A stretch of 64,000 nt of DNA from Octopus vulgaris (Eukaryota), in assembly GCA_951406725.2 (NCBI GenBank), contig OX597815.1, forward strand, positions 43,958,001-44,022,000. The letters are read 5' to 3'. The translations under genes and the position numbers were made by a program. Of the stretch, positions 44,962 to 46,155 are shown one piece after another (the stretch's first letter is position 1; every line of letters starts with the position of its first letter). The notes beneath the pieces were generated by a model. It was not told the DNA's origin and searched no databases. It worked only from the letters and a program-made list of their open reading frames with translations.

Positions 44962-46155
44962 TACTTTTACTCTTCTACACATTTCAGTCATTTGACTATG
45001 GTCATGCTGGAGCACGCTTTTAAGGGCTTTACTCGAAGAAATCGATCCCAGGACTTATTCTTTCTAAGCCTAGTACTTACTGTATTGTTCTATTTTGCCA
45101 AACCACTAAACTACGGAGATGTAAACACACCAACGCCAGTTGTCAACCCGTGATAGGGGGAAAAACACAGACACAATATATATATATATATATATATATA
45201 TATATATATATATATGTATACAAGATAAGAAAATGGAGAAATACATCTAAATCAAATATCAATTACCAGATAATACTCAATCACATACTTTATTAAACCA
45301 CCATATAAGAGACTGTAGGGTTAAATATAAAAAGCAGAACAAATCAGTGTACATAAAGGAATGTACATAAAAAAGTGTACATAAAAGAGTAATGTTGTAT
45401 AATAAGTAGAATATATATAAAAGAGAATATAAATATAAGTATAGATTACATGATATTTTTGTAAATGTCTCATTTATATCTATATATTGACCAACCATTA
45501 AGGGCTAATATTGGTAAAATGAGACATACTTATCTACATGGCCGAAACAGCTGTAAGATGTAATCTATACTTATATTTATATTTACTTATATTTATATTC
45601 TCTTTTATATATATTCTACTTATTATACAACATTACTCTTTTATGTACACTTTTTTATGTACATTCCTTTATGCACACTGATTTGTTCTGCTTTTTATAT
45701 TTAACCCTACAGTCTCTTATGTGGTGGTTTAATAAAGTATGTGATTGAGTATTATCTGGTAATTGATATTTGATTTAGATGTATTTCTCCATTTTCTTAT
45801 CTTGTATTAGTAATTTGTGGTAAATCATTTTACCTTTGCCCATATAATACAGTAAATGAATTGATTGCATCGCAATCATTAACATTTATGTATTAACTTT
45901 GTTGGGTACTTCATTAGCAGTATATTGGATATATGTTATCCCATGGAGGGTTGCATTTACAACCCCTATCTCAATTTGTATATATATATATACACGATGG
46001 ATTTCTTTCGGTTTCCGTCTACTTAATCTACTCGCAAGACTTTCGTCGGCCTGAGACTATATTAGAAGACACCTCCCCGAGCTGCTACGCAGTGAGACTG
46101 AACCTGAAAGCATGTGGTTGGGAAGCAAGTTTCTTACCATACAGAATGCCTGTAC
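44962..46155 (-). mobile_element. SINE family B split by an insertion (tail 44962-45175, head 45993-46155)
   Basis: Both halves have the same orientation, with an ~800-bp insert in the internal (TA)n. Confidence 0.8.
45218..45807. repeat. Long inverted repeat (45218-45451 / 45558-45807) with a hammerhead half-motif in the spacer; Penelope inverted-pLTR-like
   Basis: Arms are nearly identical reverse complements. ggcc-GAAAC-AGCT-GTA lies at 45540-45555. Confidence 0.9.

Follow-up and report, generated by a model that had tools for sequence, protein, structure and literature searches.

The DNA at 45218 to ~45978 of the window (the whole 64,000-nt stretch of Octopus vulgaris sequence analysed) is best explained, with about even confidence on our part, as a young fold-back insertion, likely the 5'-truncated terminal repeat of a Penelope-like element (PLE) copied from a likely uncut RNA, in which the turn was likely made by snap-back or template switching at the spacer hairpin. 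The Penelope-like identity, which is drawn from the layout of the insertion, is very probable, and the insertion is likely ordinary retroelement debris. The turn of the inverted repeat falls beside the predicted cleavage site of a hammerhead-type motif, and we therefore weigh below whether ribozyme cleavage could have set it.

A fold-back insertion within an older dispersed repeat

The locus consists of the following features, in order along the window:

44962-45217, + strand: left flank, an older dispersed repeat ending in (AT)n at 45176-45215; the target, outside the insertion
45218-45451, - strand: left (inverted) arm, 234 nt, the reverse complement of 45558-45807 minus a 16-nt duplication
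45452-45557, + strand: spacer, 106 nt, the 5'-most part of the forward copy; family sequence forming an imperfect hairpin
45540-45555, + strand: hammerhead 3' half (type I-like), GGCC-GAAA-CAGCTG-TA, with the predicted cut after 45555
45558-45807, + strand: right (forward) arm, 250 nt, 51% T, with AATAAA at 45731
45808-45978, + strand: one-sided tail, 171 nt, in the forward copy only
45979-46144, + strand: right flank, (TA)n at 45979-45992, after which the older dispersed repeat resumes

The inverted repeat is a genuine feature, and self-alignment of the window returned both arms at the positions given in the initial annotation. Besides one 16-nt tandem duplication (45568-45599, right arm only), the arms differ by two substitutions (45304/45721 and 45351/45674), and they are the sole inverted pair of >95% identity detected by megablast in the window. 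The duplication also occurs beyond this locus, with one contig of the public sequencing run X10 spanning 45540-45744 with 1 difference and no gap. The initial annotation gave the coordinates correctly but left undescribed the limits of the insertion, which runs to ~45978, inside the (TA)n of the older repeat. The left flank (44962-45215) aligns with paralogs at 2767-2508 (-) and 48288-48510 (+), and the right flank (45979-46144) with 2502-2338 (-) and 48494-48659 (+), all at 76-84% identity; the left- and right-flank matches adjoin across a TA run and represent empty sites. Since the flanks adjoin as the two halves of a single older repeat, the insertion extends from 45218 to ~45978; its 761 bp comprise, in order, the inverted arm, the spacer, the forward arm and the tail of 171 nt. 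Within the (TA)n, no target duplication can be read.

The tail is missing from the empty-site paralogs. It holds a stem-loop at 45943-45969 (z -2.5, with 3 of 200 shuffles as good) and a 31-aa frame, and no ORF was found within the 761-bp insertion. From an ATG at 45943, 11 codons stay open as far as the element end, which hints at a possible ORF start of the parent element. At least 7 contigs of run X4 diverge after 45952 and are also stop-free over the 30 letters listed.

A very high-copy family with two fixed ends

Among 24 listed public sequencing runs, 20 contain 68-85% of the words of the one-arm stretch 45452-45980 (4 organism labels, 10 studies). We aligned the contigs of four of these 20 runs (X1, X2, X4 and X10) to this stretch at 85% likeness and obtained 5,279 contigs (2182, 1198, 1820 and 79, respectively), which indicates a very high-copy repeat. 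Positions 45560-45614 were masked as repeat in this alignment, and the gap in X1, X2 and X4 coverage at 45560-45613 is produced by masking and proves nothing. The spacer (45452-45559) is covered in all four runs, with some contigs extending past 45452.

Two positions, 45807 and ~45978, are fixed ends of the family. In every run some contigs break off at 45807 and pass into (AT)n (at least 8 in X1, 9 in X2, 16 in X4 and 1 in X10), precisely the point at which the left arm adjoins its own (AT)n flank; others from X1, X2 and X4 continue across 45807 into the tail. An end at 45977 into (AT)n was found in one X10 contig among the ends listed, in addition to this locus. The window copy differs from essentially all contig depth at three positions only (45499, 45674 and 45914), and the insertion is accordingly young. 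In each of the four runs the spacer has less summed contig depth than the tail, depth being no measure of copy number.

The spacer accounts for 16 of the 40 variant rows listed (of 44 in total), and none of these 16 (45452-45559) creates a CUGANGA. Two joints were listed, both deletions, and one X10 joint was dropped at the masked zone, where such rows are mostly false; no strand-switch joint is among those listed for the unmasked part of the 5,279 contigs. This lack of listed strand switches fits either breakpoints piling up beside the GUA in the masked zone or one inherited junction. Exact family patterns had no match in metagenome, viral or prokaryote contigs, and the protein collection yielded no candidate for a 75-aa frame read across the inner junction, a result that is uninformative since the stretch is non-coding.

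In contigs of a divergent subfamily (45486-45545), the spacer resembles a degenerate tandem of two ~36-nt units, both terminating in the bases found just before GGCC, and contigs of X1 and X4 show a 38-nt skip from 45482 to 45521. The window's own letters at 45486-45545 align poorly as a tandem.

Half of a hammerhead-like motif beside the turn

The annotated string GAAAC-AGCT-GTA is present at 45544-45555 and ends at 45555 as claimed. The motif contains the GAAA, a palindromic helix III and a UH cleavage site, and its GGCC we take to be of the G10.1-C11.1 type in hammerhead numbering. The chance expectation of CGAAAC, a palindrome and GTH in succession is ~0.001 per 761 bp, and the motif thus appears to be a true hammerhead 3' half that is unlikely to be a chance occurrence. 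For comparison, we scanned metagenomes for CTGANGA followed by the same 3' half, with a pattern allowing at most 37 nt between the halves, and found at least 126 matches to the complete motif in at least 120 loci. Among the matches listed, 109 of 126 have 13-15 nt between the core halves, and in 68 of 126 helices I and II each reach at least 3 bp. As a separate observation, these loci (L001-L120) show that complete type I hammerheads with an AGCU helix III loop are abundant; five of them (L023, L035, L046, L068 and L076) carry tandem hammerhead pairs 713-791 nt apart, a retrozyme-like arrangement, and L001 carries a pair on opposite strands.

The 5' half of the core could not be located at the octopus locus. 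No CTGANGA within one mismatch occurs on the + strand of 45218-45543 or 45556-45978, the one-mismatch matches to TTGANAA have no helix II partner, and the only other upstream GGCY, at 45503, has no core before it. Rfam reported no family at gathering score in the window and no hammerhead among 63 weak matches in 44000-51000. The CUGANGA partner may have been lost in the family, may lie >92 nt upstream, or may have been replaced at the junction. With no ORF and no complete hammerhead core, the stub is likely inert as judged from its sequence. Three other arrangements were considered and ruled out: a decayed canonical core at the usual distance, where the expected CUGANGA place has mismatches at 5-6 of 6 positions; a type II permuted hammerhead, there being no CUGANGA downstream; and an intron ending just before the motif, there being no AG with a pyrimidine tract.

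The initial annotation had also read the spacer as a long helix II that had lost its CUGANGA side. Its main helix, atgtctcattt/aaatgagacat, is indeed present (11 bp, 45465-45475 with 45517-45527). The smaller pair, accaa/ttggt, exists in the window letters, but it needs A45493, a position at which T accounts for 53-100% of the contig depth of the four runs, and it is unused in the minimum-energy fold of the spacer. The loss of one side at this locus is not supported: in the alignments the spacer is family sequence up to 45452, and the bases before GAAA find no pairing partner within the insertion; moreover, the proposed helix stops 12 nt short of GGCC and in its present form cannot act as helix II. 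For the spacer as a whole the computed folding energy is -20.4 kcal/mol (z -1.81), a value matched by 10 of 200 shuffles, and the two halves complement each other more than expected by chance (6 of 2000 shuffles do as well).

The right arm begins next to the predicted cut as annotated, with two bases (45556-45557) between the cut after 45555 and the arm at 45558. If turns were uniform over 45452-45777, one would fall within 3 nt of the cut by chance in 7 of 326 positions (~2%). As a single breakpoint chosen post hoc, this proximity lends the link to cleavage little support. The forward copy itself reads 104 nt through the GUA site. Inverted repeats near the motif were found at 6 loci among the 68 listed metagenome motifs with two helices, and their inner ends, at offsets of +68, +61, +110, +74, -98 and +27/-27 relative to the cut, all fall outside a distance of 3 nt; these loci are other families of unassigned class and form a weak control. 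Two other hammerhead-bearing stubs in the window (described below) have no inversion. Since the bases after the cut belong to helix I and have a natural upstream complement, a snap-back could place the turn beside the site on an uncut RNA. Our literature searches listed no study relating the inversion points of PLEs to the position of the cut, with subscription papers and Repbase outside the coverage.

Comparison with known elements

The initial annotation had likened the structure to the inverted, truncated pLTR of PLEs, and the layout bears this out, with an inverted and shorter terminal copy, a one-sided tail and a TA target. PMC8557442 describes PLEs whose 5' end carries an inverted copy that is itself 5'-truncated, whose tail of 30-40 bp is confined to one end and whose targets are (TA)n, and PMC3846280 describes the same layout in a rotifer, with palindromes at the pLTR 5' ends and a pLTR that holds the first 12 ORF codons. 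The insertion shares with the EN+ PLEs of these papers (Penelope/Poseidon, Neptune, Hydra and Naiad) strong 5' truncation, an inverted shorter 5' copy and an extension at one end; a (TA)n target without a readable duplication; a hammerhead-type motif upstream of the 3' end; a hairpin in the 5' part of the repeat; and a possible ORF start in the last codons. It differs from them in its 171-nt tail, as against 30-40, and in having only the hammerhead 3' half, and its probable identity is drawn from layout. Ten short motifs searched on both strands in the part of the PMC8557442 supplement covered, which includes consensuses of Octopus Naiad and Hydra elements, gave no identification, although line breaks there may hide matches; one 10-nt motif matched an unrelated algal element.

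The closest biochemical parallel is PAc, a Poseidon element of Anolis carolinensis, which according to PMC11167929 nicks and extends both strands of AT-rich DNA and has two internal RNA start sites that match tailed and tail-less ends. In that account the purified enzyme takes uncut RNA as its dominant template, and cleavage is dispensable in vitro. The two systems are alike in having two fixed 3' ends, an AT-rich target, an outer-end stem-loop and a cDNA that crosses the hammerhead motif inside the terminal repeat, whereas PAc has start sites separated by 30-40 nt and a complete hammerhead. With the type I hammerheads of PLEs and animal non-LTR retrozymes (PMC4209133; bioRxiv 10.64898/2026.07.22.740005), the motif shares GGCC, GAAA, a palindromic helix III and UH, and differs in having at the locus no CUGANGA, no helix II partner and no head-to-tail tandem. 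PMC4209133 also describes hammerhead pairs on opposite strands, 100-700 bp apart. The head-to-tail tandem of non-LTR retrozymes is absent from the window, where we found a single fold-back and no second forward copy.

Inverted 5' segments are also made during target-primed reverse transcription of LINE-1 by twin priming. Twin priming yields an inverted segment that is no second copy of the forward part and that lacks a fixed outer end, whereas here the inverted part duplicates the forward part and starts at a family-fixed site.

Origin of the inverted junction

The first step of our preferred account is the insertion into the (TA)n of the older repeat, with copies of the family ending at 45807 and ~45978. 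By analogy with PMC11167929, the enzyme would have nicked both strands of AT-rich DNA, and cDNA synthesis would have started at two internal RNA sites, yielding the tailed and the tail-less end. The DNA shows that the forward copy crosses the GUA by 104 nt, and the template would thus have been uncut there. The two products would then have been joined where the spacer hairpin held the cDNA end near 45558. This account is favored by the other two stubs with a hammerhead in the window, both of which terminate in (TA)n and one of which has a GIY-YIG end. It is opposed by the distance of 30 nt between the hairpin base (45527) and the turn, by a tail of 171 nt versus 30-40 nt in the PLE papers, and by the position of the turn within 3 nt of the predicted cut (~2% under the uniform model).

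The initial annotation had instead proposed that the inverted arm copies RNA from its self-cleaved 5' end. In such a run-off, cDNA would have reached the hammerhead-cleaved 5' end with 2 nt lost at the join, the forward copy would have come from a second, uncut RNA, and the CUGANGA half would have been supplied from >92 nt upstream or by a partner RNA. We regard this as a tentative possibility of low probability. It would account for an inner end 2 nt from the predicted cut (~2% by chance) next to a typical hammerhead 3' half of which ~0.001 is expected per 761 bp; such hammerheads are thought to cut as dimers (PMC4209133), some Naiad PLE cores are marked as split over longer distances (PMC8557442), and no strand-switch joint was listed outside the masked zone that lies beside the site. 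On the other hand, this is one event picked post hoc, and both the 5' core and a helix II partner are absent from the insertion and from the listed variant rows, with 5-6 of 6 mismatches at the place where the usual span of 13-15 nt (109 of 126 among the matches listed) would put the core. Furthermore, PAc cleavage mutants still insert, PMC11167929 reports no RNA-seq reads beginning or ending at the site, and none of the 6 metagenome loci turns within 3 nt of the cut, which is a weak control.

We consider it similarly doubtful that the junction was inherited, that is, that a non-autonomous fold-back master with a broken hammerhead arose in one ancestral event and was amplified as a hairpin-plus-tail unit by a Penelope-like enzyme. 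This would agree with a spacer that is family sequence to 45452 and resembles a decayed palindrome, with the absence of the 5' core among the family variants listed, and with the lack of other strand-switch joints among those listed (one X10 joint having been dropped at the masked zone). Against it, the depth of the spacer is below that of the tail in every run, a pattern that variable 5' truncation would produce (depth not being copy number), and a 234-bp RNA duplex would probably be a poor template.

A bolder combination, in which a very high-copy Penelope-type family, probably one of octopuses, turns its inverted arm at the cut site in many independent insertions, completes its hammerhead from split parts or in trans, and carries a tail five times the usual length, seems to us rather unlikely.

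It is improbable that the structure originated as a MITE or a fold-back DNA transposon whose terminal inverted repeats measure 234 bp and whose target is TA, or through a local inverted duplication at the DNA level after insertion. The long, near-perfect terminal repeats, the TA target and the lack of an ORF would suit a MITE. However, the insertion passes the right arm by 171 nt and so does not end at both terminal inverted repeats, and this tail outside the repeat is nevertheless joined to the arm in many contigs and absent from the empty-site paralogs; the hammerhead-type motif in turn points to a retroelement. A random local duplication would not produce an outer end that matches the recurrent family end. 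Least probable is an assembly artefact in which chimeric fold-back reads made the hairpin: none of the contigs listed spans the whole structure, but the arms differ at two bases and by the 16-nt unit, the family matches the left arm at 45674 and the right arm at 45721 (no variant being listed there), so that both arms appear to have a single change of their own, which speaks against a read artefact, and the flanks together restore an intact older repeat.

Potential for double-stranded RNA and significance

If transcribed, the arms would form a 234-bp RNA duplex, as the initial annotation had predicted from the sequence, with a computed fold of ~-376 kcal/mol for the arm pair, and each such stub would be a ready-made duplex of this length. 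PMC5625713 describes in octopus an exceptionally high load of near-perfect dsRNA together with hyper-editing, and heavy editing of Penelope in a lizard. We counted 8 A>G places in X10 versus 5, 4 and 5 in the other runs, with 7 of the 8 shared; X10 is guessed to be RNA, no run being on record as such, and no matched individual exists. At 45762, G makes up 41% in X10 versus 4-7% elsewhere, contig depth being unreliable for such a comparison.

The single stub matters little, as inverted truncated ends with a tail have already been described for PLEs. As an entry point the family has some value: being young, present in very many copies and bounded by two fixed ends, it is well suited to a census of inversion breakpoints relative to the cut. 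Repeated turning at the cut site, if true, would be a trace left in the genome by ribozyme cleavage during Penelope integration, and would bear on the role of PLE hammerheads, which PMC8557442 calls unclear.

Other features in the window

Two further hammerhead-bearing stubs were identified:

10690-11963, + strand: Penelope-like 3' stub, with a GIY-YIG C-terminus (Pfam PF01541) at 10690-11016 and a stop at 11017-11019
~49187-49600, - strand: complete hammerhead core, with CTGACGA at 49409 and the predicted cut after 49368

The stub at 10690-11963 belongs to another family than the fold-back insertion. It has a C-rich 3' UTR and a minimal hammerhead at ~11826-11864, in whose 5' core T replaces the conserved A6, and it ends in (AT)n without an inversion; a short interruption of the TA run is repeated on both sides and resembles a duplication. 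The only named homologue of the GIY-YIG fragment near the locus is an Octopus bimaculoides entry, with 73% identity over 58% of the query. The core at ~49187-49600 was unreported by Rfam; it has a longer palindromic helix III, lies in an old 77% direct repeat (spacing 334) and ends in (TA)n.

Elsewhere in the window, (AAT)n flips to (ATT)n at 43891-44168 and creates a 135-bp microsatellite palindrome, and young tandem, direct or inverted duplications with repeats of 230-590 bp at 86-98% identity occur at 42205-43951, 61082-61782, 7378-9050 and 23067-25559.
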